From a bacterium (GTDB lineage Bacteria > Patescibacteriota > Minisyncoccia > Phycocordibacterales > Phycocordibacteraceae), in assembly GCA_021784815.1 (NCBI GenBank), contig JAJYHK010000011.1, positions 10,954 through 74,953 of the forward strand: 64,000 nt of DNA. The letters run 5' to 3'. Under the pieces are notes generated by a model. It searched no databases. It had not been told where the DNA came from and saw only the letters and a list, made by a program, of their open reading frames with translations. The first letter of the stretch is position 1; the number at the start of each line of letters is the position of its first letter. The position numbers and the translations under genes were made by a program. Positions 6,137 through 33,575 of the stretch are shown here, one piece after another.

Positions 6137-6213
6137 GCGGCAAGGATAACAGGTTCGCCGGTGCCAAAGTCGGATTCGGGAACTCCGCCTGAACCGGGCG
6201 TCGGGACGAGGAG

Positions 6214-6633
6214 TCAATCCCCGCGGTCCATTGCTTGGTTCGCCAGAAGGTCGGCCTCTTTGTTCTGCGTGCGGAAGACGTGCTCGAACGAAATCGAACG
6301 GAAAGCTTTTTCAAGCCGAGCGAGCTGCGCCCGCTTCTCTTGCAGCACTGGATGCTTCACCTTGTATTCTCCTTTCACCTGCTTCACGATGAGCTCGCTG
6401 TCCATTTTTACCTGCACGTCGGCTCGCCCGCGTTCGGTCTCCGCAATAAGTTCGCGTAGTTTTGTGAGCGCGCGTATGACCGCTTCGTACTCGGCGAAAT
6501 TATTCGTTTGATGGCCGAGGTAGTCGCTCACCGTTGCGACGACGTTTCCCGCTTCGTCGTGAATGATTGCGCCGGCGCCTGCGGGTCCGGGATTGCCGCG
6601 CGCGCCGCCGTCGCTGTGGATGGTGTAACGCAT
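6214..6633 (-). CDS. rnhA: ribonuclease HI
   Basis: MRYTIHSDGGARGNPGPAGAGAII...NNFAEYEAVIRAL...NKEADLLANQA, classic RNase H fold motifs. Confidence 0.85.
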   Translation of the reverse strand: MRYTIHSDGGARGNPGPAGAGAIIHDEAGNVVATVSDYLGHQTNNFAEYEAVIRALTKLRELIAETERGRADVQVKMDSELIVKQVKGEYKVKHPVLQEKRAQLARLEKAFRSISFEHVFRTQNKEADLLANQAMDRGD

Positions 6634-12327: not shown

Positions 12328-12950
12328 AATTGCGCTTTGAGGTTACGGAGCGTCGCGCCCGCGGAGATCGTATAAGTGACGGGCGCGCGATTCACGTTGA
12401 CGTCAATCTGGAGCGTGGTTTCCACCGAGGCAATCCTGGATACGTTAATGGGTGCAGTGAGCTCGGTCCCGCTTGCGTCATAGAAGGTAAAGACGGGGGT
12501 CGATGTGCCATTGACCACCGAAGTCGCGATGGTTGAGGTTGCGGAGAGAGCACCCGCGTAGGTAGGAGGACTGCCTGCGGGTTCCGCGATGCCCCGATAG
12601 AGCGTGCCGCCGACGAGCTCGTAGGTAACGCGTTCGATTTCGGGCGAACTGTTGACGTTAGCGTAGAAGACGAGCGTTGACGTACCTGCGCTCCCGATCG
12701 GATAGGAACCATCGCTCCCATAGGATGCCTCGCGGAGATAGCGCATGGCGTCCTCGACGCCGCGCCGTCCTTGTTCTGAGGCAATGGACTGCTGAAGCGT
12801 GAAAGCATTCGTCTTATAGAAGTACACGATGAGCATACTGAGCGCGCCCATGACGAGCACGGTCATCGCGATGGTTACCATCATTTCAATAAGCGTAAAT
12901 CCGCGCGCCGGGCGGTCGGCATTCAGTCGGGCGGTCGGCGGACGGGTCAT
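12324..12950 (-). CDS. prepilin-type N-terminal cleavage/methylation domain protein (minor pilin/pseudopilin)
   Basis: ARGFTLIEMMVTIAM prepilin motif. ATG at 12950 forms an ATGA overlap with the upstream gene. Confidence 0.6.
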   Translation of the reverse strand: MTRPPTARLNADRPARGFTLIEMMVTIAMTVLVMGALSMLIVYFYKTNAFTLQQSIASEQGRRGVEDAMRYLREASYGSDGSYPIGSAGTSTLVFYANVNSSPEIERVTYELVGGTLYRGIAEPAGSPPTYAGALSATSTIATSVVNGTSTPVFTFYDASGTELTAPINVSRIASVETTLQIDVNVNRAPVTYTISAGATLRNLKAQL

Positions 12951-14683
12951 TGTAGGGAGAGAGAGACGGTTGTCGTCGCTTGCCCCGAAATAGGCAGGTT
13001 GAGGTCGCTCATGGTCGTATAGCCTGGTGCAGAGGTGACGAGCGAGTACGTGCCAGGAGCGATCGCGGCAAAATAGGCGACGCCGCATGCATCGGTCGGA
13101 AGCGCCGCGGCGAAGCTGGGACTGCTGAGGACGACCCGCGCGTTGCCGATGGCGCCACCCTGGGTGTTCATTACCGTGACGCCGAGCGAGGCGTTGCCGA
13201 GACTTCCTTGTACGAGCTTAGTCGACGTCGCCGAGCCCGGTGCCAGCTGGTACGGACCTGGTGGGCAGCTCTCGAGCACGGTCGTGCTTGCGGAGAGCGT
13301 GTAGGCGTCCCATTCGAGCGTCTCCGTTACAGATCCGGTCGATCCGGTTATACCCGTAACTTGGGTCTTGTACAGGGGTGCGCTGCTCGCGGTCGAACCG
13401 ATCGTCTTAGTGCCGGTGAGCAGGAAACGGCTGTTAGGAAAGGGTTCGGGCCCCTGCGTGTGCGAAAGCGACCAGGAGCGCAGGTCCGGATTTGTCGAGG
13501 TCGACGAGCGCGAGAGCGTTGCGGAAAGCGCGAGGGTCGGGTAGCTCGTCGTCGAAACGCCGATAAGCGAAACCGGGAAGGAGCTGAAGCCGGTGCTGTT
13601 CCCCGCGAGCACGGAATCCGGCAGCAGATTGCCGGAAGCGTCAAGTACCCGGACAACGACGCTCGCGCCGCTCGGCGTCGAAAGCGAGGCGTTCAAGAGC
13701 CCCCAACTATCGAGGTAGCTCGGCGAAATGGGTATGGACTGAACGGAACCGGACAGGGCGCCTGATGCGAGCTGTACGGAACCGTCGGATACGATCGCGT
13801 TCTTTTCGCCGGCAAGGTTCGCCGTGCTCGCGAAGCTGTCGGAAAAAACGGTGGTCGTCGCCGGCGAGAACGAAGAGATAATAAGGGTCGCGAGCCGGTC
13901 AATCGCGAACGTGCTCGTCGTCGTTTGATCCTGACGCACCGTGAGAAATCCCGGCGTCGGGTTGACGTTAATCGCGGTCCGCGGGTAGGTTTGTGCGCTC
14001 GAGTCGCCCGATTTCGACACATATATTTGGTAATCCGGGGAGCTCGTGGCGCCGCCGATCGATACCATACCGCTGCTGTCGGTAAGCGTGGTGAAGTCGA
14101 TAGCCGGCGAGGTCGATGCGTTCACGATCCGGACGCTCGCGCCGCTCACCGCGTTGTCGGAGGCGTCGACAACGTGGATGTCGAGCGTGCCTCCCGCGGT
14201 GTTGCTTTCAATCCCAGGCGGCGCAAAGTTCGATGCGAGCGTCACTAAGCGCGGGAACCCGCCGGCGGCGTAGGAAACCGATACGACCGCCTTCTTGTAG
14301 TCGGTCGTGATGCCGTTTGTGTCGGCGGTCCCCGTTCCGTCGGCGGGATCGTCGTAGTAATCAATAAAGGTATGTACGACATAGGGCGCGCCGTCTACGG
14401 TCGAGGTGGCGTACTGCGGAACGAATCCTGAAGGGATGCCGCCCTGCGTGCCGAGCGCCTCGTAATTAAGGCCACGGAGGTACTCCATCTGGGTATTCGC
14501 AACCTCGACTGCGGTCGCTTCGGCCTGGTCAATGGCGGAGAGCGAGAGCGAGGCGCGCAGGGCGCCGAAGAGCGCGAGGAAGACGACAAGGAGAAGAGCG
14601 CTGCCCACGAGGACGTCGATGAGCGTCATGCCCGACGCGATCGGTGCCCGCCCTCCTCGCTGCCGTTCTCTCGAGAGGCTCAT
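12947..14683 (-). CDS. large pseudopilin-like protein (prepilin-like N-terminus plus about 540-aa Ser/Thr-rich beta-rich domain)
   Basis: Leader MSLSRERQRGGRAPIASG then MTLIDVLVGSALLLVVFLALFGAL (class III signal-like); 578 aa. Confidence 0.55.
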   Translation of the reverse strand: MSLSRERQRGGRAPIASGMTLIDVLVGSALLLVVFLALFGALRASLSLSAIDQAEATAVEVANTQMEYLRGLNYEALGTQGGIPSGFVPQYATSTVDGAPYVVHTFIDYYDDPADGTGTADTNGITTDYKKAVVSVSYAAGGFPRLVTLASNFAPPGIESNTAGGTLDIHVVDASDNAVSGASVRIVNASTSPAIDFTTLTDSSGMVSIGGATSSPDYQIYVSKSGDSSAQTYPRTAINVNPTPGFLTVRQDQTTTSTFAIDRLATLIISSFSPATTTVFSDSFASTANLAGEKNAIVSDGSVQLASGALSGSVQSIPISPSYLDSWGLLNASLSTPSGASVVVRVLDASGNLLPDSVLAGNSTGFSSFPVSLIGVSTTSYPTLALSATLSRSSTSTNPDLRSWSLSHTQGPEPFPNSRFLLTGTKTIGSTASSAPLYKTQVTGITGSTGSVTETLEWDAYTLSASTTVLESCPPGPYQLAPGSATSTKLVQGSLGNASLGVTVMNTQGGAIGNARVVLSSPSFAAALPTDACGVAYFAAIAPGTYSLVTSAPGYTTMSDLNLPISGQATTTVSLSLQ

Positions 14684-15892
14684 TTAAAACGCCGAAGAGA
14701 GCTGGTAAATAGGCGCGATCATCGCAACCGCGAAGATGCCGACCATGGTGCCGATGAAGAGCATGAGGAGCGGCTCGATAATGGTCGAGAGGTCCTTCGT
14801 CTTTTCGGCGACGTCATTCTCGTAAAATTCGGCGATCTGTCCGAGCATCTGGGCAACCTTTCCGGTCTCCTCACCGACCGAGAGCATGTCGCTCATGAGG
14901 AGCGGGTACACGTTTGGATGCGCCGCAAATGCGCTCGAGAGCGGCTCGCCCTTGCGCACCCCGGTCTCCGCTTCCTCGATGATGTTCGCAAAGAGCGGCG
15001 CGTGAACGACCGCTTTGGTGATCGAGAGCGCCTCAAGTACCGGCACGCCGGCGGAGAGGAGCGAAGAGAGCGTGCGCGCGGCGCGCGCGGCGTAGGTCTC
15101 GCGAACGAGTTCGCCGATTGCCGGCATGAGAAGCGATGCTCTGAGGACGAGCGCGCTGCCGCGCGCCGAACGTATGAACGCGATACCGCCGCCCACGACG
15201 CCAACGAGAACGAGGAGCGTGAGGGCAACGTTGTTTATGAGCATGTTCGAAATGGCGACGATGACGCGGGTTGCCAAGGGCACCTTTACATGAAGCGAGA
15301 CAAAGGTCTTTGTGAGCACCGGTACGACGTACATGAGCATCAAGATAGCGATAATGATGACCGCAGAAATCACGATGGAGGGATAAATCATCGCGCCCTT
15401 TACCTTACGGATGAGCTCGGACGTATGCTCCATCTGGATACCGACCGTGTTGAGCGCCTCGGCGAGGCTTCCCGACTCCTCGCCCGCTTGTGCCATGGAA
15501 ATGAAGAGCGGCGGGAACACCTTCGGGTACTGCGCGAGCGCCTCATGAAAACTCGAGCCTTTTTCGACCGTTTGAGCGAGGTGCGCGGTTACTTCTGCCA
15601 TTTTACGCTTGCCGGACTGGCGCTGAATGACCGCGAGCGAGCGCGAGAGCGAGAGGCCGGCTGAGAGCATGGCGGAGAGATTCTTCGCCATGCGGATGAC
15701 TTCGGCGTTTTTCACGCCCGTACCGAGCGTCGCATGGAGGAGTGAGGACAGTTTAGTCGCGTTGCTTTCGGTGAGCCCGACGACCGTGCCGCCGTCCTTT
15801 TGAACTTGTTCGTACACCGCAAAACGCGAGGGCGCGTCGATCGTACGCGTCTCTTCCCCGCCGCTCGTGCGAACCGTCACGCGGAACCTCAT
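14684..15892 (-). CDS. pilC: type IV pilus assembly platform protein PilC (GspF family)
   Basis: Two T2SS-F domains with three TM helices. ATG at 15892 (MRFRVTV...) checked. Confidence 0.85.
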   Translation of the reverse strand: MRFRVTVRTSGGEETRTIDAPSRFAVYEQVQKDGGTVVGLTESNATKLSSLLHATLGTGVKNAEVIRMAKNLSAMLSAGLSLSRSLAVIQRQSGKRKMAEVTAHLAQTVEKGSSFHEALAQYPKVFPPLFISMAQAGEESGSLAEALNTVGIQMEHTSELIRKVKGAMIYPSIVISAVIIIAILMLMYVVPVLTKTFVSLHVKVPLATRVIVAISNMLINNVALTLLVLVGVVGGGIAFIRSARGSALVLRASLLMPAIGELVRETYAARAARTLSSLLSAGVPVLEALSITKAVVHAPLFANIIEEAETGVRKGEPLSSAFAAHPNVYPLLMSDMLSVGEETGKVAQMLGQIAEFYENDVAEKTKDLSTIIEPLLMLFIGTMVGIFAVAMIAPIYQLSSAF

Positions 15893-16084
15893 TTCAATGG
15901 TAGCGTAGCATGCGCATGCGCGCGTAGCGCGCGTTATAAAGAGATACGCGACGGCCGCAAGCCGCCGCGCAGTCTTCTTCCCATCGCCTTTTGTTGCACC
16001 TCCCGCTTCAATCCGCAAAACCATGCTTGCGCGTTCAAGCGGGGCGGAAACGGACGATTCGATAGGTCGTCCGTTGCCCCGAGT

Positions 16085-16306
16085 TCAGGTGTAGGTCATC
16101 GGCTGGACGTCTTTTGCGGCTCGGCAGCCCGCAAAGAGCTGAGCCGCAAGTTCTGGTTCTCCGCCCGCGGACAGATACTCAGCCTGTCGGTGGAGCGCTC
16201 GCGCTTGCAACTGCCGATAACCATCTTCGGACAAGCCGAGCATGATTTCACCTGCTGGTGCGGTCGTGGTCTCGGACATTTCCCACCCATAAAGAAAAAG
16301 CATCAC
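16085..16306 (-). CDS. hypothetical small protein between pilB and pilC
   Basis: 73-aa ORF in operon orientation. No motif and no clear RBS. Confidence 0.2.
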   Translation of the reverse strand: MMLFLYGWEMSETTTAPAGEIMLGLSEDGYRQLQARALHRQAEYLSAGGEPELAAQLFAGCRAAKDVQPMTYT

Positions 16307-16409
16307 GTCCAGCCGTTCCGCCCGGACGCCCGCGGGTCTCTTTGGTGCGCCGAAGAGACAGCCTGATATTGACGCTCAGTCGCAACTATGTCAAGGGTTC
16401 GGTCGATTG

Positions 16410-18158
16410 CTATTCCGAAACGGCACGGAGCACCTCTTCGACCGAGGTGATGCCGCGCGCCGCTTTGTAGAGGCCGTCTTCAAACATGGTGAGCATGCTC
16501 TCTCTGCGCGCCTGGTCCTCAATAGCATCAGTCGTCATCTGGTGGAGCATGATTTCCTTGATCGCCGGCGATACGGCGAGGACCTCGTGGATGCCAATGC
16601 GGCCCTTGTAGCCGTCCGCGCACTCGGCGGATTCCTTAGGATGATAAAACGGCACGTCATCAATGGCGGTCCCTTTTTTGACGAGCTTCTCTTCGGTGAG
16701 CGCGTTCAGGACCGTATCAAACGATTCTTTTGGGGCGATCTTGTCGCGCTCGCTAGCGTCGAGCGCGTACTGTTCTTTACCATCACAGAATTTACGCACG
16801 AGGCGTTGGCCGACAATGATGCGGATGGTCGACGCGAGGAGGAACGGCTCGACGCCCATATCGATGAGACGCGGAATCGCGCCGGCGGCACTGTTCGTGT
16901 GGATAGTCGAGAGCACGAGGTGGCCGGTGAGTGCGGCGTTGATGGCGAGCGAGGCGGTCTCGTTATCGCGGATTTCGCCGACCATGATGATGTCCGGATC
17001 CTGGCGCACGAGGGAGCGCAGGCCTTCCGCGAAAGTAAAGCCGATCGCGGGATTTACCTGGGTTTGGTTCACGCGCTTCATTTGGTACTCGATCGGATCC
17101 TCGATCGTAGAGATGTTCACGTCGGGAGTATTCACGATGTCCATCATTGTGTAGAGGGTCGTCGTTTTGCCCGAACCGGTCGGCCCCGAAATGAGAATGA
17201 TACCGGTCGTCGTCTTGAGCGCGGCATGGATCCGTTCAAGCGTCTCGCCATGGAAGCCGAGCGCCTCAAGCGTGAAGCCGCCCCCTCCCTCGCGCAAAAG
17301 GCGCATAACGATCTTCTCGCCATAGAAGGTGGGGAGGATGGAAACGCGAAAGGAGACGCGCTCGGCTTCCGTCTCCATCTTGAAGCGGCCGTCTTGCGGC
17401 AGCCGCTTTTCGTCGAGCTTGAGGTCGGAAAGCACCTTAATGCGCGCGACGATCGCCGGAGCCGCGATCTTCGGCAGAGTCATCGCGTCGTGGAGCATGC
17501 CGTCGATGCGGTAGCGTACGAGCACCTGCCCTTCCATGGGCTCAATGTGGACGTCGGAAGCGCCCTGCACGATGGCATGGCGCAGGAGCGAGTCGACAAT
17601 ACGCACGATCGGCAGATCGTCCGCCATTTTCTTGAGATCCTCGTGTGACATCTCTCTGTTCGTTTCGTTCACGACGCGAATCTTGCCCGTCTCAGTTGCG
17701 ATAATATCGCCGAACTCGTCTTTGAGCGATTTTTGGTACTGGAGGAGCGCGACCTTGATGCTCTCGGTATCGGTGAGGCGCGGCTGAATCTTGAGGCCGG
17801 TTTTCTTGCGGACCGAGTCGATCGAGGCGAGATCGTCGACGTCCAGCATGGCGACCTCGAGCGATTCCCCACTTTTTCGAAACGCGATGATGTTGTGCGT
17901 GCGTGCGATCGGTTCGGGGATGAGCACGAGCACATCGGTCGGAATGCGCTGGTCTTTGAGGCTCACGAACGGGATGCCAAGCACATACGCCTGAATACGG
18001 CGCAGCGCGTCCTCGCTCAGGGCGCCTCGATTCACGAGGATGGTGCCCAAGGGCGCGCCGCTCTTTTTCGATTCGGCATCGGCGTCCTCGACGTCCTTGC
18101 GGGAAACGAGTCCCGAGTCAATAATAAATTCTTTGAGCTCCCCCGGTGAAACGTGCAT
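16410..18158 (-). CDS. pilB: type IV pilus assembly ATPase PilB (GspE family)
   Basis: Walker A GPTGSGKTTTLY, Asp box, His box, N-terminal T2SSE_N domain. ATG at 18158 checked. Confidence 0.9.
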   Translation of the reverse strand: MHVSPGELKEFIIDSGLVSRKDVEDADAESKKSGAPLGTILVNRGALSEDALRRIQAYVLGIPFVSLKDQRIPTDVLVLIPEPIARTHNIIAFRKSGESLEVAMLDVDDLASIDSVRKKTGLKIQPRLTDTESIKVALLQYQKSLKDEFGDIIATETGKIRVVNETNREMSHEDLKKMADDLPIVRIVDSLLRHAIVQGASDVHIEPMEGQVLVRYRIDGMLHDAMTLPKIAAPAIVARIKVLSDLKLDEKRLPQDGRFKMETEAERVSFRVSILPTFYGEKIVMRLLREGGGGFTLEALGFHGETLERIHAALKTTTGIILISGPTGSGKTTTLYTMMDIVNTPDVNISTIEDPIEYQMKRVNQTQVNPAIGFTFAEGLRSLVRQDPDIIMVGEIRDNETASLAINAALTGHLVLSTIHTNSAAGAIPRLIDMGVEPFLLASTIRIIVGQRLVRKFCDGKEQYALDASERDKIAPKESFDTVLNALTEEKLVKKGTAIDDVPFYHPKESAECADGYKGRIGIHEVLAVSPAIKEIMLHQMTTDAIEDQARRESMLTMFEDGLYKAARGITSVEEVLRAVSE

Positions 18159-18421
18159 CGTATACGAAGTATACCGAGAGTTACGCGCGGGCACTGTGTA
18201 TGTACACACATTACGCTGCATGCGTGTGAAGGCATGCTAATGAGCGCGTACCAGCCTGTGCGCCACCACCATTGACGAAGCGAGATAATGCTGGTACCTT
18301 GTGGTCAACTGGAAGACCCGCCCCGCGGGCTTTCTTTTACCCAGCACAAAAGAACCGGCGCGTCCGGTTACAATCACAGGAGTGCTGGCTTTATAAAACG
18401 TGCGCCACATACACATCCCAT

Positions 18422-24375: not shown

Positions 24376-25512
24376 TTATCGCAAATACCGTTTCCCCTTG
24401 AGCGGGTCCGGCAGGTAGGATTCCGTACCGTACTTTTCATAGCCCTTGCCGTAGTCGAGCTCTTTCATGAGTTTGGTCACCGGGTTGCGGATTTTCTTCG
24501 GAATGGGGAGGTTTCCGAGCGCGTGCACATCGGACTGCGCTGCCAGCAGCGCGTCATACGCGCTGCGGTCCTTTTTCGCCTGAGCGAGATAGGCGACGCC
24601 GTGCGCGAGATTGATCGCGCACTCCGGATAGCCGATCGTTTCGCAGGCGCGGAAGACGGCATTTGCGACGACGAGCGCGGTCGGCTGCGCAAGACCCACG
24701 TCCTCGCTCGCGAAGACCACCATGCGTCGGGCGATGAAGAGCGGGTCCTCCCCGGCCTCGACCATGCGCGCCAAATAATAGAACGCAGCATCCGGTTGTG
24801 AAGCGCGCATGCTTTTAATAAAGGCGCTGATGGTGTCGTAGTGCTCCTCGCCCTTTTTGTCGTAGCGCAGGTGCGGCGATTCGAGTGCCCTCGAGAGCGT
24901 GTCGGCTGTAATTTCTCCGTACAGGCTCTGGGCGCCCTCAAGGAGGCCGAGCGCTCGGCGGGCGTCGCCATTGGCGTAGGTCGCGAGCCAGTCGAAGGCG
25001 GCTTTGGGCACTTTGAGCTTTGTGCGCTTCACGAGCGCCCTGAGCGAGTCGTCCGAAAGCAGCTCGAGCACGAAGACGCGGCAGCGCGAGAGAAGCGCGG
25101 AAATGACCTCGAAGGACGGGTTTTCAGTGGTTGCGCCGATAAGCGTGAGCTCGCCGCTCTCGACGTAGGGGAGCAAAAAATCCTGCTGTGCCTTGTTGAA
25201 GCGATGGATTTCATCCAAAAAGAGAACCTTTGACTTACCGTGCGTATCGAGCTCGACGATTTTACGGATATCGTCCTTCCCCGCCGACACCGCCGAAAGC
25301 TCAAAGAGCTCCGCATCAAGCGCGCGGGCGTAGATGCGCGCGATGGTGGTCTTTCCTGCTCCGGGCGGTCCCCAGAGGATAAAGGAGAAGAGATGTTTCT
25401 TCTCAATCGCGGCGCGCAGCGGCTTCCCTTCCCCGATGAGGTGCTCTTGTCCGACCACTTCGTCGAGCGTTTGGGGTCGAACCCGAGCGGCAAGCGGCTC
25501 CATAAGCTCCAT
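24376..25512 (-). CDS. rarA: replication-associated recombination protein A (AAA+ ATPase RarA/MgsA)
   Basis: LWGPPGAGKTT Walker A, sensor motifs and the MgsA C-terminal domain. ATG at 25512 (MELMEPLAARVRPQTLDEVVGQEHL). Confidence 0.85.
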   Translation of the reverse strand: MELMEPLAARVRPQTLDEVVGQEHLIGEGKPLRAAIEKKHLFSFILWGPPGAGKTTIARIYARALDAELFELSAVSAGKDDIRKIVELDTHGKSKVLFLDEIHRFNKAQQDFLLPYVESGELTLIGATTENPSFEVISALLSRCRVFVLELLSDDSLRALVKRTKLKVPKAAFDWLATYANGDARRALGLLEGAQSLYGEITADTLSRALESPHLRYDKKGEEHYDTISAFIKSMRASQPDAAFYYLARMVEAGEDPLFIARRMVVFASEDVGLAQPTALVVANAVFRACETIGYPECAINLAHGVAYLAQAKKDRSAYDALLAAQSDVHALGNLPIPKKIRNPVTKLMKELDYGKGYEKYGTESYLPDPLKGKRYLR

Positions 25513-25595
25513 GGTACTCTCCTTCCCGAGCGATACAACGGACCGACGTTCCTCGGCAGCGCGCGTATGGTGCCCGCTCGCTGTGCTCGTGAGCT

Positions 25596-25611
25596 CCTCG
25601 CAGTTGCGGAC
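25596..25611 (+). repeat. 16-bp motif CCTCGCAGTTGCGGAC, copy 1 of 4
   Basis: Same orientation as the copies at 26892, 27115 and 29984. It is followed by a ~200-bp region homologous to 27131-27320. Confidence 0.7.
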
Positions 25612-25952
25612 CGGCAGCGGATCGGCAAATGCCAAGAATCCGGGGGCTTTCCGAACAAGCCGAACACGGATTTGGCATTTCTGGCGTGTTCGGTTTCTGT
25701 CAAAAATGTTACAAATGTTACACGAATACGCGATATCGGGGATGTAACATTTGTGAAGAAATGCGCCATAAGCACTAGACTTTTTAAAGAAATGCGTGGC
25801 GTTTTGTGCACCTACCGCAGCTTGATGAAAAAAGTATTTACGCAATTTCCCGATCATAGTCTAGTTCAGTACTCAAACCGTATTTAAAAAGGCGAAATGC
25901 GCAGGAAATCCTTATTTTAAGGGTCTTTTATCGAGCTACCATCGCGTGACAT

Positions 25953-25980
25953 TGACATAAGAAAGTAGTCATCGTATTAT
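25953..25980 (+). promoter_or_regulatory. sigma70-like promoter (TTGACA, 16 nt, TATTAT)
   Basis: Consensus -35 and -10 elements about 45 nt upstream of the 26028 ORF. Confidence 0.5.
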
Positions 25981-26027
25981 ATATGTAGGTTTTGAGTCCT
26001 GTGCATTTCGCCCAGGAGAACAGCACA

Positions 26028-26189
26028 ATGGAGAAGACCATGCTGAACAAGATGATTGCCGGTTTCGGCCGGTTACCAGACTTCGAACGCCTCCTCCTTG
26101 GAGTGGTCGTTCTCGGAGGCGGCTGTTTCGCCTTCGCACTCGCCAGCATCGAAGGTCTGTCGATCATTCAGGGACGCCCCCTGTTCTGA
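26028..26189 (+). CDS. small hydrophobic protein (53 aa)
   Basis: AGGAGA RBS 8 nt upstream, TM helix VVVLGGGCFAFALASI. Flanked by a consensus promoter and terminator. Confidence 0.4.
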   Translation: MEKTMLNKMIAGFGRLPDFERLLLGVVVLGGGCFAFALASIEGLSIIQGRPLF

Positions 26190-26210
26190 TTGCGCAGACC
26201 CCAACCAAAC

Positions 26211-26241
26211 CCCTGCCTCAAGAATCGAGGCAGGGGTTTAT
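26211..26241 (+). terminator. rho-independent terminator (cccctgcctc-aagaatc-gaggcagggg then TTTA)
   Basis: Perfect 10-bp stem. Confidence 0.6.
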
Positions 26242-26687
26242 ATGCCTGCCATACTCAGGCGAGTTTCTCTTATTTAGGGGTATTCCATGAGTATTGAGCA
26301 TCCATCATCACAAGCACCTAAACCCGATCCCTCAGAGAACCAAGATATGAGCTGGATGAATCTGGCCGAGAGAGGTTCAGTTCAAATGTGGAAGTCGTGG
26401 CGAGCGAGATGGAAGTGCGTGCTGCCGGTGCCGCTTCATCTGTGGAGACGGCATGCCCATCGCTGGGGCAGATCCAAGCGGCGGAGGCTACTCTCGAGCA
26501 AAGCCAACAAAGACTAGAGGCCGCACTACGCTCTACGAATCAAACAACGCCGGAACGCAGCGCTACGATACGGGAACGGGTGTAATGAGCATTGGACAAA
26601 AGCAAAGCTGAAGGCGGGCCTGGCCTTCGCGGGTCTCGGAGCGGCTTCACTCGGGGGAGTACCGATTCCCCGCTGAACCCCACTGAC

Positions 26688-26816
26688 CTCGATATACGCA
26701 AGTATGCGAAGTATCTGCTCAAAAACGGCTCCCGAGAGGAGAGGCGCGAGCTGCTCGGGCATCTCCGCAACCGACTCATTCTACTGAAGGACAGAGAAAT
26801 CGCGCCCGCAGATTAG
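26688..26816 (+). pseudogene. 3' fragment of a second large serine recombinase gene (decayed paralog of 28616..29941)
   Basis: Encodes [42 protein letters not shown]; the recombinase C-terminus is [41 protein letters not shown]. About 75% nt identity over about 125 bp. No upstream recombinase domains remain. Confidence 0.6.
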
Positions 26817-26848
26817 CCCGGACAAGTCTCGCAGTTGTGAACTTTTTC

Positions 26849-26889
26849 CGAGGCCTCGCGGTCTAAAATCGGGTCTCTGACTGCTGTGC
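26849..26889 (+). repeat. about 41-bp direct repeat (cgaggcctcgcggtctaaaatcgggtctctgactgctgtgc), copy of the tRNA-Gly-flanking sequence at 30005..30046
   Basis: About 80% identity to 30005-30046. Flanked by 16-bp motif copies (degenerate at 26828, canonical at 26892). Confidence 0.65.
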
Positions 26890-26891
26890 CC

Positions 26892-26907
26892 CCTCGCTGT
26901 TGCGGAC
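26892..26907 (+). repeat. 16-bp motif CCTCGCTGTTGCGGAC, copy 2 of 4
   Basis: Direct repeat family. Confidence 0.7.
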
Positions 26908-27114
26908 TGCACCAAGCGAGGCAACATAAGGGCGGTTTTGGCGCTCGTCGCCTCACCGATTTGACCCCTCGCAGTCATGATCAGAATGGGACATTTGGGA
27001 CACCATTCGCGCATAATAGGACACTGTCCCGTTTATACGATTCTAGCAAGCATTTGCAGGGTATTCCCATGATTCGGAGCGCGGGACGGGCGTCCCGTCC
27101 GTGTCCCAAGCGAG

Positions 27115-27130
27115 CCTCGCAGTTGCGGAC
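27115..27130 (+). repeat. 16-bp motif CCTCGCAGTTGCGGAC, copy 3 of 4
   Basis: Followed by tgttacaaatattacac and tgtaacat/ccgaacacg repeats homologous to 25620-25790. Confidence 0.7.
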
Positions 27131-27592
27131 TGAAATGTTACAAATATTACACGTTTTGAGCACTTTTGGGGTGTAACATTTTGGACAAAATCTGGCTTGG
27201 AGAAAGGATAGATCGCTCGGAAAGGGCTGTAACATTCTGGCTGTCGCGGCCGCAATTCCGAACAATCCGAACACGACAGAGGCCATTCCGAACGTTCGAA
27301 ACGTGTTCGGTTACCAGGAACGCCACTCGAAGACGGTCGTTTAAAATGCCCAAAAATGCCAATTTTCTGACAATCGAGATTGCGAGATGTGTTTCATTCA
27401 TGCGTCAGAAAACGGCGCAAATGCTAGGGATGAGACAAGTGAGACACTTTTACGCGTTTCATTTTGCGTCTCAAAATTGGCATTTTATCGCTATGCCACG
27501 AAGGCACCCCACCGCCCGTCTCGCCCACATCACCCGTGCGGAGCGGATAACGACAAATTGGACAAAAATGAGCACCGGGAGCGAGTGTAACG

Positions 27593-28141
27593 TTATTCAG
27601 GCAATATCATCATATTGCCGTATGGGTCTCCCGGCGTTGCTTCGCCCCAGTTCATGCCCGACCAGCACGCCGGCTGCGCGTACGGAGAATTCGCCGGCCG
27701 CGGTTCTTCGGTGTCCCAATACAAGACCGCGTACGTGCCGCTCGGCGAACCGCAGGTTGCTGGTCCTCCGGTAAAATTTACATAACGGAACGTGCAGCCG
27801 CTGAGCGTCGTCTCAACCGGAACCTGACTTATATAACCTCCTGTCTGCAGCGCAGAGAGCCAACTGTACCCGCTACCAGAATTACCCGATTGCCAATTCC
27901 ACCAGCAGCCGCTGCCGCCTCCCGATTGATTCAAGTACGGATACTGGCCGTTATGATCGTTCGCATACATTTCAAGAGCGGTGCGTATGCTCTGAATGTC
28001 GGAAATGCGCGCCGCATCGCGCGCTTTACTACGCGCGGTACTTAAGCTCGCAAGTATGATGCTTGAGAGAACCCCAATAATCGCAATGACCACCAAGAGT
28101 TCGATTAGGGTAAACCCGCGATACGAACGTGCACGCCTCAT
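27593..28141 (-). CDS. pilA: type IVa major pilin (PilA-like)
   Basis: MRRARSYRG|FTLIELLVVIAIIGVLSSIILASLSTARSKARDAARISDIQSIRTALEMY. ATG at 28141. Cys residues for a C-terminal disulfide are present. Confidence 0.8.
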   Translation of the reverse strand: MRRARSYRGFTLIELLVVIAIIGVLSSIILASLSTARSKARDAARISDIQSIRTALEMYANDHNGQYPYLNQSGGGSGCWWNWQSGNSGSGYSWLSALQTGGYISQVPVETTLSGCTFRYVNFTGGPATCGSPSGTYAVLYWDTEEPRPANSPYAQPACWSGMNWGEATPGDPYGNMMILPE

Positions 28142-28425
28142 TGTGTTTGCTGGCCTGGGATACGATCTGTTTGGGAGAAATTTTTTACGATTTGTCCTGA
28201 CGAAGTACCAAGTAACATCGGCACGGCAAACGCAAGAATGATCGCGCCAACGGCAATGCCAATGAGCACGCGTGTCGCACCCTTTTCGTCCTTCGCCAAT
28301 CCCCATCCGATAACGAGCTTCGCCATGCCGCGGGACTCGCTCGTCACTCCCCGTCGAGGCGTATATTGTTCCTCCTCCTGAAATTGAATGCCACTACCGC
28401 CTGCGCCTAAGTCCATATGCTTCAT
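28138..28425 (-). CDS. hypothetical small membrane protein upstream of pilin
   Basis: 95-aa ORF with one TM helix. Its stop overlaps the pilin start. No clear RBS. Confidence 0.3.
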   Translation of the reverse strand: MKHMDLGAGGSGIQFQEEEQYTPRRGVTSESRGMAKLVIGWGLAKDEKGATRVLIGIAVGAIILAFAVPMLLGTSSGQIVKNFSQTDRIPGQQTQ

Positions 28426-28615
28426 ATTAATACCACACCCACGTCTGCCGACATTAATCTAATGGGGACATACGGGCCTGCCTGCTACACGCCGTTTTAT
28501 TTTCAGCTAGACTTATAGCGGTACCGGTGCCCTAGAGATACCAACTCACCCCTCATGGACTCCTCCGAGGGGTTGCGTCATTCCTTGTACCTGTTAGCAG
28601 CTAATCAAGGAATGT

Positions 28616-29941
28616 ATGGGAACAGCAACGGTTCAGGGTGGTTTCGGGGCGACCACTGCCCCACCGGAGGCAGTGCCAGTCCGGTATTGCCTGTATGCTC
28701 GAAAATCAACGGAGAGCGAAGAACAGCAGGTGTTGAGCATTGAGAGCCAGGTGAAGGAAATGCTCGCCATGGCAGAGAATGAAAAATTGGAGATTGTGGA
28801 GGTGAAGCGTGAGTCGCACTCAGCCAAGGAAGCCGGAGCGCGTCCGGTATTCAACGAGATCGTGGAGGAGATACGCACTGGAAAGTTCAACGGCATCCTG
28901 ACCTGGGCACCAGATCGCATCAGCCGCAACGCCGGAGACTTGGGCAGGATCGTAGACCTGATGGACCAAGGACTACTGCGGGATATCCGTACATACGGTC
29001 AGCGCTTCACGAACAATCCGAACGAGAAATTCCTCCTCATGATATTGGGAAGCCAGGCGAAGCTTGAGAACGACCAGAAGCGCATCAACGTGAAGCGCGG
29101 ACTGCGCGCCCGAGCCGAGATGGGCCTTTGGCCCGGTATCGCGCCGACGGGATACTTGAACGACCAACGCAAGGATCATCGCTGCGAGATACTTGTCGAT
29201 CCTGTCCGCTTCCCTATCATCAAGCAGGTCTTCGAAAAGATCGGCGTCGAGCGCTGGAGTGGCCGCAAGGTATATGCATGGCTCAAGAATGACGTGCGGT
29301 TCGTCTCTCGCTTCGGCAAGGGCATGAACCTCGGTACCTTGTACAAAATAATCAAGAATCCCTTCTACTGCGGTGTCTTCGAGTACCCGCGCGGAAGTGG
29401 CTCCTGGTATACCGGCAAGCATACGCCACTCATCACCCAAGAGTTATTCCAAGCCGTGCAAGAAAAGATCGCCGAAGAGAATCGCCCCAAACATCGCTTC
29501 AAGGAGTGGCACTTCACCAAACTCTTCATCTGCGGATACTGCGGCAGCGGCATCACGGCGCAGGAGAAGACGAAACTCCTTGCGACCGGCGAGCCCGCCA
29601 CCTACGTCTATTATTCCTGCTCCCGTGCCAAGGACGCGCACTGCAAGAATCCGTACCTGCGCGAGGAGAAAGTCATCGACCAGCTTGCTGGCCTAATTGA
29701 CCAGATATCGCTTGATGAAATTGGTGCCCGTCATCTCATCGAGCGCGAGGTATCGCGATACAACAAGCTGCGGGCTGAAGTTGAGGGGACGACCGACGTG
29801 ATCAAGGCGAAGGAGATGGACATCCGCAAATACGCCAAGTATCTCCTGAAGAACGGCTCGAGAGAAGAAAAACGCGAGCTGCTCGGGCATCTGCGCGACC
29901 GACTCATCCTGAACGATCGGGTGATCACGCTCGCCGATTAG
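28616..29941 (+). CDS. large serine recombinase (resolvase catalytic domain, recombinase domain, zinc ribbon, coiled coil)
   Basis: [12 protein letters not shown] catalytic Ser motif, recombinase domain, CGYCGSG...C zinc ribbon; 441 aa. Confidence 0.85.
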
Positions 29942-29983
29942 CACAACAGCGCGACATCCGTCGCGTCTTTGTGCGCGAACGAC

Positions 29984-29999
29984 CCTCGGAGTTGCGGAC
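29984..29999 (+). repeat. 16-bp motif CCTCGGAGTTGCGGAC, copy 4 of 4
   Basis: 43 bp downstream of the recombinase stop. Confidence 0.7.
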
Positions 30000-30004
30000 C
30001 AAAA

Positions 30005-30046
30005 TCGAGGCCTTGGAGTCTAAAAACCGCGTGCTGACCGCTGTGC
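30005..30046 (+). repeat. about 41-bp direct repeat (att-like) abutting and overlapping the tRNA-Gly 3' end
   Basis: cgaggccttggagtctaaaaaccgcgtgctgaccgctgtgc. The last 3 nt are the tRNA discriminator and terminal GC. Confidence 0.65.
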
Positions 30047-30114
30047 GGGATAGGAGAATCGAACTCCTACTCTCAGTTTGGAAAACTGACGTTCTGCCAT
30101 TAAACTAATCCCGC
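30044..30114 (-). tRNA. tRNA-Gly (anticodon UCC)
   Basis: Manual fold: acceptor gcgggat/atcccgc, anticodon stem tcagt/actga, loop tttCCaa (anticodon tcc), T-arm aggag-ttcgatt-ctcct. No encoded CCA. Confidence 0.8.
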
Positions 30115-30208: not shown

Positions 30209-31351
30209 ATGAACCGCTTGCCCCTGTGGACGAGCCTGGTTGCGCTTTTTGCGAGCGTTCTTCTGTTGGTTGCCGTGAGCCGCGCGACCATTCGCCATGC
30301 GGATCTCTTAGCGCAGGTGTCTCGCGAGACTCCGGCAGGACAGGCCTCCTCAAGCGCGGTTGCGTTCGGGCGTGCCGCCACGAGTACGCGCACAGCTGGC
30401 ATGCTGACAGCCGCAACGTCTTCGCCCGCGCGCCCGCGCGGATCAAAAACGAGCACGGCAGCCGTCTCTAATAAAAAAGCATCCTCGCCCGCGGCGGTGT
30501 CAGCAGCAAACTTTGCGAACGCTTCGGCGCGCTTGCGCGCCGCGCTCGTGAATATCATGTGCTATGCGCCGGCGAGTAGCTCGCTCCACTCCATCTCCGG
30601 CAGCGGCGTCATCATTGACCCGAAAGGAATAATCCTTACCAATGCGCATGTAGCACAGTATTTCCTCCTCGCCAATCAGGGCGTCTCATGCGTTATTCGC
30701 GCCGGTACGCCGGCAACCGACCGCTACGATGCTACTATCGAGTACCTCTCCCCTGCTTGGATTGTCGAAAACGCGGGGGTGCTCACCGAACATATGCCTA
30801 CCGGTACGGGCGAGCACGACTACGCACTGCTCGCGATTACGGGAACCACTACCGGCGCGCCGCTTCCCGCTCGGTTTCCTGCAATATCGCTCGCGCTCGC
30901 ACCGCCCCAGGCGGGTGCGGACGTAGTAATCGCCTCATACGGGGCGCAATTTTTGAATCCCGTAGAAATTCAAGACGCTCTTTCGCCGACGGTCGTTTAT
31001 GGCTCCATTAAGGGCATTTTCACTTTTGCAACGAGCTCGGTCGACGTGCTCTCGCTCGGGGGCAGCGCGGCGGCGCAAGAGGGATCGTCCGGTGGCGGCG
31101 TGGTAGACGGGCAAGGCAGGCTCGTGGGACTCATCACGACGAGTACGGTAACCGGCGCAACCGCTACCCGTTCGCTCGACGCGATTACTGCCTCCTACAT
31201 TCGCGCTGACTATGCAGCGCAGGCGGGCACGTCGTTCGATGCGCTTCTCGCGCAGGACCCAGTAATGGCGGCACAGGCCTTTGCGCCGCGTATTCCTGCG
31301 CTCGAAGCAGCCATTTTGGGTGCCAGCACGAGCACGACGCCTCGGGGGTGA
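30209..31351 (+). CDS. trypsin-like serine protease (S1 family, membrane-anchored or secreted, no PDZ domain)
   Basis: Catalytic triad contexts TNAHV, DYALL and GSSGGGVVD. N-terminal TM/signal. Confidence 0.75.
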   Translation: MNRLPLWTSLVALFASVLLLVAVSRATIRHADLLAQVSRETPAGQASSSAVAFGRAATSTRTAGMLTAATSSPARPRGSKTSTAAVSNKKASSPAAVSAANFANASARLRAALVNIMCYAPASSSLHSISGSGVIIDPKGIILTNAHVAQYFLLANQGVSCVIRAGTPATDRYDATIEYLSPAWIVENAGVLTEHMPTGTGEHDYALLAITGTTTGAPLPARFPAISLALAPPQAGADVVIASYGAQFLNPVEIQDALSPTVVYGSIKGIFTFATSSVDVLSLGGSAAAQEGSSGGGVVDGQGRLVGLITTSTVTGATATRSLDAITASYIRADYAAQAGTSFDALLAQDPVMAAQAFAPRIPALEAAILGASTSTTPRG

Positions 31352-31983: not shown

Positions 31984-32317
31984 GGCTTTTAAAAGTATGG
32001 CTTACTTACTTATTAGATTCTCGGACTCTCCACAATTTCCACAGGATTCTCCCCTGTCCTTTATCCCCATAATCCACATGGATATCCACACTTTTGCGCA
32101 GAGGGCAAATCTGTTCCTTGAGAGGCTGCACAGGGATTAATCCGCCCTCTTCCTAGATCGTTTTCTCCGAAGACTGGCAATCGGCCAATGGTGTGTCATC
32201 GGGAGCTGAGTTTGCACGCCCGGCAAGGCGCCGATCGCGCTTCGTTTAGGTCGTCTCCCAGTGAGCGGCCCCCTGGCTTCCGCCTGGGAACCGTTCGGCG
32301 ATTTGCTCGCTATTCGG

Positions 32318-32388
32318 TGCGGATAGGGAGAATCGAACTCCCGTCTCATCCTTGGCAAGGACGTGTTCTACCACTAAACCATATCCGC
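32318..32388 (-). tRNA. tRNA-Gly (anticodon GCC)
   Basis: Manual fold: acceptor gcggata/tatccgc, anticodon stem cgtcc/ggatg, loop ttGCCaa (anticodon gcc), T-arm gggag-ttcgatt-ctccc. Confidence 0.8.
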
Positions 32389-33298: not shown

Positions 33299-33503
33299 AA
33301 AAGCGCGAAACTAACGTTATACTCACTGCGATACTAGTATTTTTGTAAGATACATTACCGTTCCGCGCCTATCGGCCACTTCCCTGGATATGTTGGTCGG
33401 AGATGTTACACGCGGAACATTGTAGTCCCCGCACGGCATCCGCCATAAGCCGCAACGTTCGTTTCAGAAGCGGCCTGTATGTGCAACGTTTATTCTGCTT
33501 TTG

Positions 33504-33575
33504 TGCCCCGGCCAGGATTCGAACCCAGAATAGCTGTTCCGAAGACAGCCGTGATATCCATTTCACCACCGGGGC
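33504..33575 (-). tRNA. tRNA-Arg (anticodon UCG)
   Basis: Manual fold: acceptor gccccgg/ccggggc, D-stem gtga/tcac, anticodon stem gctgt/acagc, loop ctTCGga (anticodon tcg), T-loop ttcgaat. Confidence 0.75.

Follow-up and report, generated by a model that had tools for sequence, protein, structure and literature searches.

A probable tandem array of small serine recombinase elements, one carrying a type IV pilin gene, at the 3' end of a patescibacterial tRNA-Gly gene

What occupies the interval between the MgsA/RarA gene (24376-25512, minus strand) and the tRNA-Gly(UCC) gene in a 64-kb stretch of patescibacterial DNA (contig JAJYHK010000011.1; the whole stretch is called the window here), where a recombinase gene and a type IV pilin gene lie between repeated sequences? 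An initial annotation had proposed an integrative element at this tRNA, with a large serine recombinase (LSR) and pilin cargo. Comparative evidence from related loci (named L001, L002, and so on; all genomes compared were metagenome assemblies) supports this proposal, and sets the bounds of the element at 26886-26889 and 30043-30046. Very probably, two small site-specific integrative elements, E1 and E2, stand in tandem from about 25571 to 30046 of the window, at the 3' end of tRNA-Gly(UCC) in a Kaiserbacteria/Paceibacteria-like genome. The array reaches further left than the coordinates drawn initially.

E2 is a discrete, complete 3.15-kb integrative element (26890-30042) adjoining the tRNA gene. 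Read from the tRNA side, it consists of a conserved arm of ~100 bp, the LSR gene, two cargo genes on the opposite strand, and a conserved non-coding end of 700 bp. The tRNA-proximal arm (P arm; 29942-30042, plus strand) contains a hairpin (29942-29973), the A1 copy of an 18-mer discussed below (29984-30001), and then GAGGCCTTGGAGTCTAAAAACCGCGTGCTGACCGCT. It abuts GTGC at 30043-30046 (plus strand), the attR-type junction between E2 and the tRNA. As the initial annotation had claimed, the right-hand repeat runs into the tRNA: its last four bases, this GTGC, are C74, A73, C72, and G71 of the tRNA read on the opposite strand. The target gene itself is intact on the minus strand (30043-30114 by ARAGORN or 30044-30114 by Rfam, 70.3 bits; both programs were used for tRNA calls). 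It is convergent with the recombinase gene, its 3' end facing the recombinase stop codon 101 bp away. The recombinase (441 amino acids; 28616-29941, plus strand) is the E2 integrase, and its gene is preceded by a divergent control region and leader (28426-28615, plus strand; alignment A4). On the minus strand lie a small membrane open reading frame (ORF) of 95 amino acids without a Pfam family (28138-28425) and, overlapped at its start by this ORF, the gene for a type IV (PilA/GspG-like) prepilin of 183 amino acids (27593-28144; PF07963 N_methyl, E = 6.6e-9). The non-coding end follows on the plus strand as a module B region (27133-27592; 85-87% identical to L086), a third 18-mer that is the exact sequence CCTCGCAGTTGCGGACTG (A2 copy, 27115-27132), a conserved module A (26922-27114), and the distal or P' arm, CCCCTCGCTGTTGCGGACTGCACCAAGCGAGG, in which the 18-mer lies within a hairpin (26890-26921). 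Domain and ORF analysis thus confirmed the genes first listed between the repeats (an intact LSR, a type IV pilin, and a small membrane ORF), and the AT-rich region reported with them is also real, with 700 bp at a GC fraction of 0.49-0.50 versus 0.55-0.60 around it.

The window recombinase is a bona fide large serine recombinase. Pfam detected Resolvase (PF00239, E = 3.9e-20), Recombinase (PF07508, E = 3.8e-12), and Zn_ribbon_recom (PF13408, E = 6.8e-9) domains. Across 27 homologues, Y27-A-R29-K-S31 was invariant, with R29-K-S31 aligning with R20-R-S22 of the SPbeta integrase, as were the zinc-ribbon cysteines C306, C309, C335, and C343. In a Foldseek comparison, the predicted fold (mean predicted local distance difference test score, 69) matched full-length LSR-DNA complexes of the SPbeta, Bxb1, Listeria, and phiC31 integrases (9dxd, 3.6e-17; 9iu2 [Bxb1], 1.6e-13; 4kis, 3.8e-11; 9rah [phiC31], 2.4e-9). 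At moderate confidence, the model places helices at 368-389, 403-413, and 416-423, then a beta-hairpin at 430-439, an arrangement compatible with a short coiled coil that would return to the zinc ribbon, where LSRs have a coiled-coil insertion governing directionality. An exact-sequence look-up returned no existing record of this protein. Close homologues (60-88% identity), however, number in the thousands in metagenome-assembled genomes of Patescibacteria, or the candidate phyla radiation (CPR), labelled Kaiserbacteria, Paceibacteria, Adlerbacteria, Taylorbacteria, Nomurabacteria, and others.

A scan for recombinase relatives in one genome per species gave 459 loci; several genomes held two or three family copies. 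tRNA and cargo counts were taken from the best 80 of the 459, using the nearest tRNA within 5 kb of the recombinase gene. The nearest downstream tRNA was convergent with the recombinase in 46 of these 80 loci and co-directional in none, only 7 of the 80 had any tRNA upstream within 5 kb, and 12 tRNAs started 101-144 bp past the recombinase stop codon. The tRNAs targeted vary by clade and include Gly (tcc, ccc, and gcc), Arg (tct, cct, and gcg), Ser, Gln, Met, Lys, and others.

Junctions in these relatives define the ends of the unit. Proximal junctions read CTGACYGCT/GTGC/tRNA in all Gly-targeting and most Arg-targeting members. From stop codon to tRNA, the DNA of the Gly and Arg clades is nearly invariant, running through a hairpin, an 18-mer, and GAGGCCTCGCGGTCTAAAAACCGCGTGCTGACCGCT to GTGC and the tRNA body. 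The E2 P arm is kept base for base in L001, L002, L003, L006, L007, and L086, and its last 9-13 nt (CTGACYGCT) are kept even in tRNA-Arg-targeting clades. At the other end, sequences similar to window positions 26885-27151 lie 1.4-3.5 kb before the recombinase gene in L004, L005, L008, L013, L014, and L015. Distal junctions take the form flank/GTGC/CCCCTC-hairpin-GAGGCAAC in the window, L004, L005, L008, L012, L013, L014, L015, L084, and L086; the distal pattern is also written flank/GTGC/CCCCTCGCTGT. The flanks are unrelated to one another; among them are a tRNA-Leu 3' end, a tRNA-Val 5' end, a terminator, and a promoter region. Because both ends start or stop at GTGC in relatives, each unit is bounded by GTGC on both sides, and family units are 2.2-5.2 kb long.

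Three relatives show this most directly. L086, a 9.5-kb contig from another sample, carries the same element at the same tRNA with 83-87% nucleotide identity (recombinase 87%, membrane ORF 88%, and pilin 92% at the amino acid level). Its similarity to the window ends at 26884, and the DNA that follows is the HU gene with its terminator, not E1 and MgsA; its distal junction reads CAACCT/GTGC/CCCATAGCGG (also given as CAACCT/GTGC/CCCATAGCGGTTGCGGACTG). L084 (4719-6894) has the gene order of the window and reads from MgsA through GTGC into a distal end like 26955-27168, and finally CTGACCGCT/GTGC/tRNA-Gly(tcc). The unit lying exactly between MgsA and this tRNA holds cargo (an alpha/beta hydrolase and a hypothetical protein) and no recombinase; it may have arisen by deletion, or it may be mobilised in trans. 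In L001, the site and flanks are the same and the recombinase is 88% identical, with unrelated DNA between. The same two ends are therefore found next to an HU gene (L086), next to E1 (window), and next to MgsA (L084), with nine further distal junctions. Side observations concern L086 and a more distant occupant of the same site: a fragment of an IS1595-type transposase is inserted in the non-coding end of the L086 pilin element (5759-6485), the MgsA and PDT genes are missing beside the element in the L086 genome, and L081 (1-6911) has at the same tRNA-Gly(tcc) site a more distant recombinase (59%) 2.2 kb from the tRNA. The L081 island, a larger variant, holds an HTH_3/Peptidase_M78 regulator pair, a DUF3892 gene, and an MmeI-type restriction-modification gene.

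The sequence common to all junctions is the 4-bp GTGC (tRNA positions 74-71), which is present also at unoccupied tRNA ends, namely those of the tRNA-Gly(gcc) and tRNA-Arg(tcg) of the window and those of L081 and L083. The 41-bp direct repeats of the initial annotation (26849-26889 and 30005-30046) do exist, as imperfect copies of 41 and 42 nt with 33 identities in 43 aligned columns (77%), but they are not an integration duplication, since the core shared by all junctions is only GTGC. They form the tail of a longer similarity of ~200 bp (26691-26889 versus 29819-30046), the first 92 nt of which are 82% identical and encode the recombinase C-terminus. The repeats are the conserved tRNA-proximal arms of two stacked elements. 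Of the two explanations initially offered for such long repeats, each was correct in part: there is a tandem array, the neighbour being decayed with a recombinase 3' remnant, and the attachment (att) architecture is unusual, with long arms and three tRNA-like 18-mers.

The 18-mer CCTCGCAGTTGCGGACTG had four matches at ≤3 mismatches against 0.07 expected, and none of 100 shuffles reached four. At ≤4 mismatches there were five copies, all on the plus strand, at 25596, 26827, 26892, 27115, and 29984; the 16-mer noted earlier does recur, but the count of four had overlooked the copy at 25596. A shorter core, CCTCGCRGT, is found seven times on the plus strand, from 25596 to 29992. The 18-mer is present in three direct copies per element, ~59 bp to the left of the core, 6 bp to its right, and ~226 bp to its right, and clade-specific variants tend to change together across copies. 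Within the P' hairpin, the stem changes among elements from CCTCGC/GCGAGG to CCTCAC/GTGAGG. The suggestion that crossover takes place inside the 16-mer was not borne out, as the GTGC core is separate from the 16/18-mer, whose P' copy covers positions 6-23 bp to its right.

We compared P' arms with the target tRNA of the same element. Over the first 24 nt in register, 96 of 216 positions matched (44%) versus 55 ± 6 in shuffled sequences, and 0 of 5000 shuffles reached 96, a statistic that overstates independence because the elements are related. Matches cluster at +10 to +19, in the T-loop block G-A-CG-AC. Examples are the L015 P' arm, CCCTCCACGGTATCGCACC, against its tRNA, CCTCACCTGGAATCGAACC, and the upstream copy in L012, CCTCTCGGT-TGCGAACC, against TCTCGGTAGGAATCGAACC. 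These matches suggest that the 16/18-mer is a diverged copy, or mimic, of tRNA acceptor/T-arm sequence. The T-arm of tRNA-Gly(UCC), GAGAATCGAACTC, may be the outer part of a putative B' half-site. Conservation of the att arms runs far past 50 bp. The right half-sites, P' and B', are alike. The left half-sites are not: in contrast to the conserved P arm, the left flank of attB shows no conservation in 13 junctions or empty sites.

The junctions indicate that the recombinase joins a site on the circular element (P arm-GTGC-P' arm) to a tRNA end (any flank-GTGC-acceptor/T-arm), with strand exchange within the 4-bp GTGC, which leaves the tRNA intact. The staggered cut is probably at a 2-bp step inside GTGC (GT or TG). 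Recognition of the chromosome would be one-sided, requiring GTGC and the tRNA T-loop block GAATCGAAC ~10-19 bp away. The P' arm of the element, with its 16/18-mer, would imitate that block, making the P' arm and the tRNA equivalent right half-sites and the 16/18-mer the motif that the recombinase reads in both partners. If the non-tRNA flank is not read, an occupied site would be reusable and elements would stack; one-sided recognition would likewise let the family hop between tRNA species. The pilin is cargo travelling with the element.

A pair of elements on one contig bears on the use of different tRNA species. L004 (4574-8431) and L005 (3745-8217), both on CAWEXP010000008.1, have recombinases identical at 431 of 441 positions (97.7%), distal arms 99.2% identical, and nearly identical proximal arms. 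Their cargo differs, and so do their targets, tRNA-Arg(tct) versus tRNA-Gly(gcc). The two tRNA half-sites have in common only GTGC, two scattered bases, and GAATCGAAC. This pair suggests that one integration module can use several tRNAs.

A more far-reaching reading, which we hold tentatively and consider doubtful as a whole, joins these ideas into one: a distinct LSR branch that reads a generic tRNA signature, integrates, excises, and stacks without an additional factor, uses accessory 18-mers, and serves cassette exchange. If so, the signature would be GCAC at 71-74 plus the T-loop block, with the other side free, and one module would serve several tRNA species. Because the P' arm would imitate the tRNA half-site, the left junction (flank plus P') would look like attB and the right junction (P arm plus tRNA) like attP, and integration, excision, and repeated stacking would proceed without a directionality factor. 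The extra 18-mers, found in the proximal arm, in the leader of the recombinase gene, and where module A ends, would be accessory recombinase-binding sites, and the 2-5 kb elements would form a cassette-exchange system for surface and defence genes, in this case the pilin, in minimal-genome bacteria.

To the left of E2 lies E1 (~25575-26885), a decayed older or neighbouring element. Together with E2's non-coding end, it forms ~2 kb without convincing genes (25513-27592). The core GTGC at the E1/E2 junction (26886-26889, plus strand) joins the E1 P arm to the E2 P' arm, an attP-type structure. The E1 P arm (26827-26885, plus strand) has an 18-mer (26827-26844) followed by GAGGCCTCGCGGTCTAAAATCGGGTCTCTGACTGCT and holds the left 41-bp repeat. 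It is preceded by the 3' remnant of a second LSR gene, comprising the last ~42-54 codons depending on whether nucleotide or protein alignment is used (26655-26816, plus strand). By tblastn, this remnant is 70% identical to residues 391-441 of the E2 recombinase (E = 1e-14), and at the nucleotide level 26691-26782 is 82% identical to 29819-29910 (alignment A1). The interior (25761-26654, plus strand) contains a sigma-70-like promoter (25952-25980; TTGACA-17-TATTAT, 11 of 12 matches) followed by short broken ORFs, all ≤80 amino acids and none with a Pfam family at gathering score; it is probably decayed cargo. At the distal end (25575-25760, plus strand) are a truncated P' arm, an 18-mer (25596-25613), and AATGCC, CCGAAC, and GTTACA modules that match E2 27115-27490 and L013, L014, L028, L032, and L034. 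The leftmost junction of the array is probably the attL-like GTGC at 25571-25574 (plus strand; GTATG/GTGC/CCGCTCGCTGT), which matches the distal-junction pattern 58 bp upstream of the MgsA start codon (25512). We place the outer boundary of E1 there with moderate confidence; L084 has a comparable junction 30 bp from the MgsA start. The E1 arm is closer to the L005 arm at tRNA-Gly(gcc) (82%) than to the E2 arm (77%), which indicates that E1 and E2 are different elements and not a local duplication. The content of the MgsA-tRNA-Gly interval differs in each of six relatives. Stacking was seen elsewhere as well: L008 (2192-10921) has three recombinase copies within 9 kb, with one element at tRNA-Val(tac) and two stacked at tRNA-Arg(tct).

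A relative lacking the element, the comparison called for by the initial annotation, was found. L083, which core genes place nearest to the window (RNase Y 89%, MgsA 87%, and PDT 88%), has three other genes at this tRNA, with no recombinase and no element signatures. Conversely, tRNA-Gly(gcc) is empty in the window (CTATTCG/GTGC/GGATAGG), whereas in L005 and L007 it is occupied by members of the family. When the window is compared with L086, identities are 87-92% for the element proteins, versus 72% for RNase Y, 66% for the protease, 64% for UPF0102, and 82% for HU. Since the element proteins are closer than the core proteins and the closer relative L083 lacks the element, these comparisons imply that the pilin-bearing element was transferred horizontally between lineages.

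The pilin N-terminus, MRRARSYRG/FTLIELLVV (FTLIELLVVIAIIGVL after the cleavage site), has a short basic leader, a glycine, phenylalanine at +1, glutamate at +5, and a hydrophobic helix. With a weak T2SSG match besides PF07963 and 92% identity to P0241 in L086, the protein is a PilA/GspG-type pilin; its rank as the major filament subunit cannot be read from 64 kb. The membrane ORF is 88% identical in L086, and the pilin homologues of L088 and L112 likewise come after a small ORF of this kind, so that it appears from gene order to be a conserved partner of this pilin family. More distant pilin homologues (55-79%), also paired with the small ORF, are found away from any recombinase gene, inside housekeeping clusters for sugar metabolism and ribosomal proteins. 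The window lacks the sugar-metabolism cluster, which fits relocation or duplication of the pilin gene alike. We considered the pilin as a common cargo of the family and rejected this: a pilin-motif scan of six frames of the 80 loci found a pilin in the window's element only, and tblastn of the pilin and membrane ORF against the 80 loci found nothing. Pilin cargo is a rare exception, known otherwise only in the close relatives L086 and L087. Across the family, cargo includes a SocA/Panacea antitoxin pair, DKNYY proteins, a T4SS-pilin-domain protein, an ABC ATPase, and a hydrolase, and cargo genes are always on the strand opposite the recombinase. Beside one family member, directly upstream of the recombinase at tRNA-Gly(ccc) in L002 (535-1898), we observed Cas1 (PF01867, E = 1e-61) and a Cas2-sized ORF.

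Could the locus be something other than stacked integrative elements? The recombinase and pilin genes are divergent neighbours, and JGI annotations of homologues read "DNA invertase Pin-like site-specific DNA recombinase," which would fit a DNA invertase that switches pilin expression or variants (phase variation or a shufflon) with the repeats as crossover sites. We rejected this reading, to which we give almost no credence, because inverted sites are lacking. The 18-mer and the 41-bp arm occur only as direct copies. Neither the pilin gene nor its promoter is enclosed by an inverted repeat; the best inverted pairs are 17-24 nt and 71-89% complementary, or fall inside the non-coding end. Moreover, the Recombinase and zinc-ribbon domains present in the protein are typical of integrases, whereas invertases have a small helix-turn-helix, and the same recombinase family lies beside unrelated cargo elsewhere, at tRNA 3' ends. 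Local segmental duplication, or recombination of paralogous recombinase genes near a tRNA by coincidence, would account for two copies diverged to 67-82% identity, as expected of an old duplication. It is just as hard to credit, given the 46:0 tRNA association across the family, junctions at the same four bases in independent genomes with unrelated flanks, and an E1 arm nearer to that of L005 than to that of E2.

Somewhat less remote, though still improbable, is that a large prophage or conjugative element once stood here and lost all but its integrase and att site, true cargo included, with the pilin an ordinary chromosomal gene caught between remnants and 3.15 kb no natural unit. IMG/VR does have 20 viral contigs, up to 55 kb long, with recombinase relatives (44-58% identical), E1 is evidently decayed, and pilin homologues are chromosomal in other genomes. 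Yet the same pair of conserved ends delimits units of 2.2-5.2 kb in at least 10 places, their distal 230-700 bp are conserved as well as or better than coding DNA, and the whole of E2, pilin included, recurs in L086 with identical boundaries, a different flank, and far more similarity than the host genes.

Several points weigh against the stacked-element reading itself. The source is a metagenome-assembled genome, in which repeats can mislead assemblers, yet the two arms are only 77% identical. Apart from the recombinase, E2 encodes only the pilin and the 95-amino-acid membrane protein, with no gene for a recombination directionality factor, and no extra small gene is conserved across the family elements compared; such a factor could be encoded elsewhere. 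Excision of E2 is thus putative, and E2 may be fixed in this lineage. The E1 left boundary at 25571 is a short, degenerate match, half-site assignments and the roles suggested for the extra 18-mers derive from conservation alone, and the relatedness of the elements limits the register test as noted above. Finally, neither an excised circle nor a restored empty site from the same population was seen. An E2 circle, or an E2-E2 tandem, would read AAAAACCGCGTGCTGACCGCT GTGC CCCCTCGCTGTTGCGGACTG, where the resident E1/E2 junction instead has AAAATCGGGTCTCTGACTGCT; a chromosome without E2 would read GGGTCTCTGACTGCT GTGC GGGATAGGAGAATCG, and a fully empty site MgsA-flank GTGC GGGATAGG. The circular-form pattern CTGACYGCTGTGCCCCCTCRC gave no matches in metagenome contigs, and a relaxed pattern gave one relevant contig (L114) and one chance match (L113). 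On L114 (VFSW01163557.1, 1-2359), a cargo end is followed without a break by the recombinase, the P arm, GTGC, the P' arm, and module A. This contig, either a circular form or a tandem stack, has the sole attP-type junction found in the metagenomes.

The non-coding end of E2 has a structure of its own. In E2 and its relatives, the distal 230-700 bp is as well conserved as coding DNA or better, in elements whose recombinases are 66-87% identical. Module A is conserved in nine elements (alignments A2 and A3) and ends with the third 18-mer in 9 of 9. It contains GAGGCAACATAAGGGC, GGGACA at 26988 and 26997, TGTCCC at 27025 and 27102, a GGGAC/GTCCC pair at 27083/27092, and ATTCTAGCAAGCA; across the nine aligned elements, the hexamer is either GGGACA or GAGACA, all of its copies changing in concert. 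Module B comprises a GTTACA/ATTACA module (27134-27240), a CCGAAC module (27252-27312), an AATGCC inverted pair (27353-27371 and 27468-27486), and a GAGACA module (27432-27470). The general form is xxxACA-AAT-xxxACAC...GTGTxxx, with a triplet that varies between modules. Such series occur in the window at 26922-27590 and 25596-25760 and in L002, L004, L005, L008, L012-L015, L034-L036, L061, and L063. They are always on the recombinase strand, facing the 3' ends of cargo genes; no ORF follows, and no regulator gene lies within the elements. By their layout, the modules resemble promoter-plus-operator units. A promoter scan found a promoter-like match in module A (26988-27017) and one strong match in E1, with totals within chance.

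The conserved non-coding end does not correspond to a known RNA: across the window, Rfam at gathering thresholds gave only the four tRNAs, and a permissive scan of 25400-28700 found nothing. Module A was also considered as an RNA gene, and the evidence fell short: RNAalifold gave nested helices between hexamer copies, with G-C to A-U switches, a covariation term of only -0.39 kcal/mol, and few independent events. Dyad symmetry of attP around GTGC was similarly dropped as evidence, as a CCGC/GCGG pair at ±14-17 is present in the window's clade only and absent from the L008/L015 clade. In viral contigs, the GAGACA module was found in three, two of them also with a distant recombinase relative; the GTTACA 17-mer had 48 matches, only one with a recombinase relative, and these are probably mostly chance. 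Upstream of the recombinase, DNA similarity to eight relatives begins 60-90 bp before the start codon. This leader has a conserved hairpin (28549-28572; CCCCTC...GAGGGG) resembling a shortened 18-mer and a second hairpin (28580-28587/28606-28613) that would occlude the ribosome-binding site; the two may give autoregulation or translational control.

How does this family relate to known systems? Serine integrases are known for protein-coding or intergenic targets, not tRNA genes. The E2 enzyme resembles those of SPbeta (SprA/YokA), Listeria A118 (LI Int), Bxb1, phiC31, and TP901-1 in its three-domain architecture, nucleophile motif, and fold, and the elements share an integrase gene at one end beside the att site and a very short common core. 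The E2 family differs in targeting the extreme 3' end of a tRNA, in a non-tRNA attB half that is not conserved, and in arms of ~100 bp and 230-700 bp with three direct tRNA-like 18-mers, versus typical sites of ~40-50 bp built of imperfect inverted half-sites about a 2-bp crossover. Its elements are also only 2-5 kb and have no candidate directionality factor, and 441 amino acids is at the short end of the integrase family. Use of t(m)RNA genes by serine integrases was described as previously unreported by Mageeney et al. (2020, PMC7192596), who saw it in only 14 of 297 predicted cases and regarded it as needing proof.

Functionally, the family is analogous to, though not a member of, the tycheposons of Prochlorococcus. 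Both are small cargo elements at tRNAs in streamlined genomes, with integrase clades partitioned by tRNA and with tandem stacking, in which degraded integrases and att relics pile up beside the tRNA and give rise to variable islands. In tycheposon-type elements, 910 of 937 use tyrosine recombinases, with ~40-nt partial-tRNA repeats (Hackl et al., bioRxiv 10.1101/2020.12.28.424599). E2 instead has an LSR, a 4-bp repeat plus a diverged mimic, and a host in another phylum; many tycheposons carry replication genes, and E2-type elements carry none. Islands and prophages inserted at tRNAs by tyrosine integrases (P4-like and SXT-like) are alike in 3'-side insertion, a functional tRNA, an adjacent integrase, and tandem arrays. 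They differ in enzyme family and chemistry, and their exact copy of the tRNA 3' end becomes a direct repeat, whereas the E2 family carries a diverged mimic (44% in register) with exchange at positions 71-74. The L084 unit, with both ends and cargo and no recombinase, is like the cis-mobilizable elements (CIMEs), which depend on the integrase of a related element, although it may be a mere deletion product.

E2 belongs to a large family of mini-elements that is apparently undescribed; within the library searched, no paper links serine recombinases of Patescibacteria/CPR with tRNA integration. As an exception to the rule on targets, it comprises a whole radiation of serine integrases (459 genome loci) at tRNA 3' ends with fixed geometry, and it offers many natural attP/attB pairs. 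Reading a near-universal feature of tRNAs while ignoring the other half-site would, if true, be an unusual solution to specificity, and such an integrase could become a broad-host-range tool, including for CPR bacteria without genetics. In Patescibacteria/CPR, pilin is thought to be central to attachment and DNA uptake, and the elements offer a concrete route for the exchange of single surface genes among ultra-small, host-dependent bacteria. The MgsA-tRNA-Gly interval is likewise an example of island formation by stacking and decay of mini-elements.

The surroundings of the array add minor observations. To the right of the target tRNA lies a trypsin-like protease gene (30209-31351, plus strand), followed by tRNA-Pro(tgg), a UPF0102 gene, tRNA-Gly(gcc), and tRNA-Arg(tcg). 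tRNA-Gly(gcc) (32316-32388) and tRNA-Arg(tcg) (33503-33575) have GTGC and the T-loop block at their unoccupied 3' ends; tRNA-Pro(tgg), with an encoded CCA (GGTC where the others have GTGC), would not match the core. TCCACA/ATCCACA repeats of the form xxxACA-N3-xxxACA lie at 32029-32100, after the UPF0102 gene and before the empty tRNA-Gly(gcc), and a similar motif lies in the same place in L083, so such modules are not exclusive to the elements. On the other side, ~10 kb from the element, the window contains a type IV pilus cluster (10912-18221) with PilB (16410-18221), PilC (14684-16024), a pilin-like gene (12324-13088), a 578-amino-acid CarboxypepD_reg protein, and a 471-amino-acid protein of unknown function.

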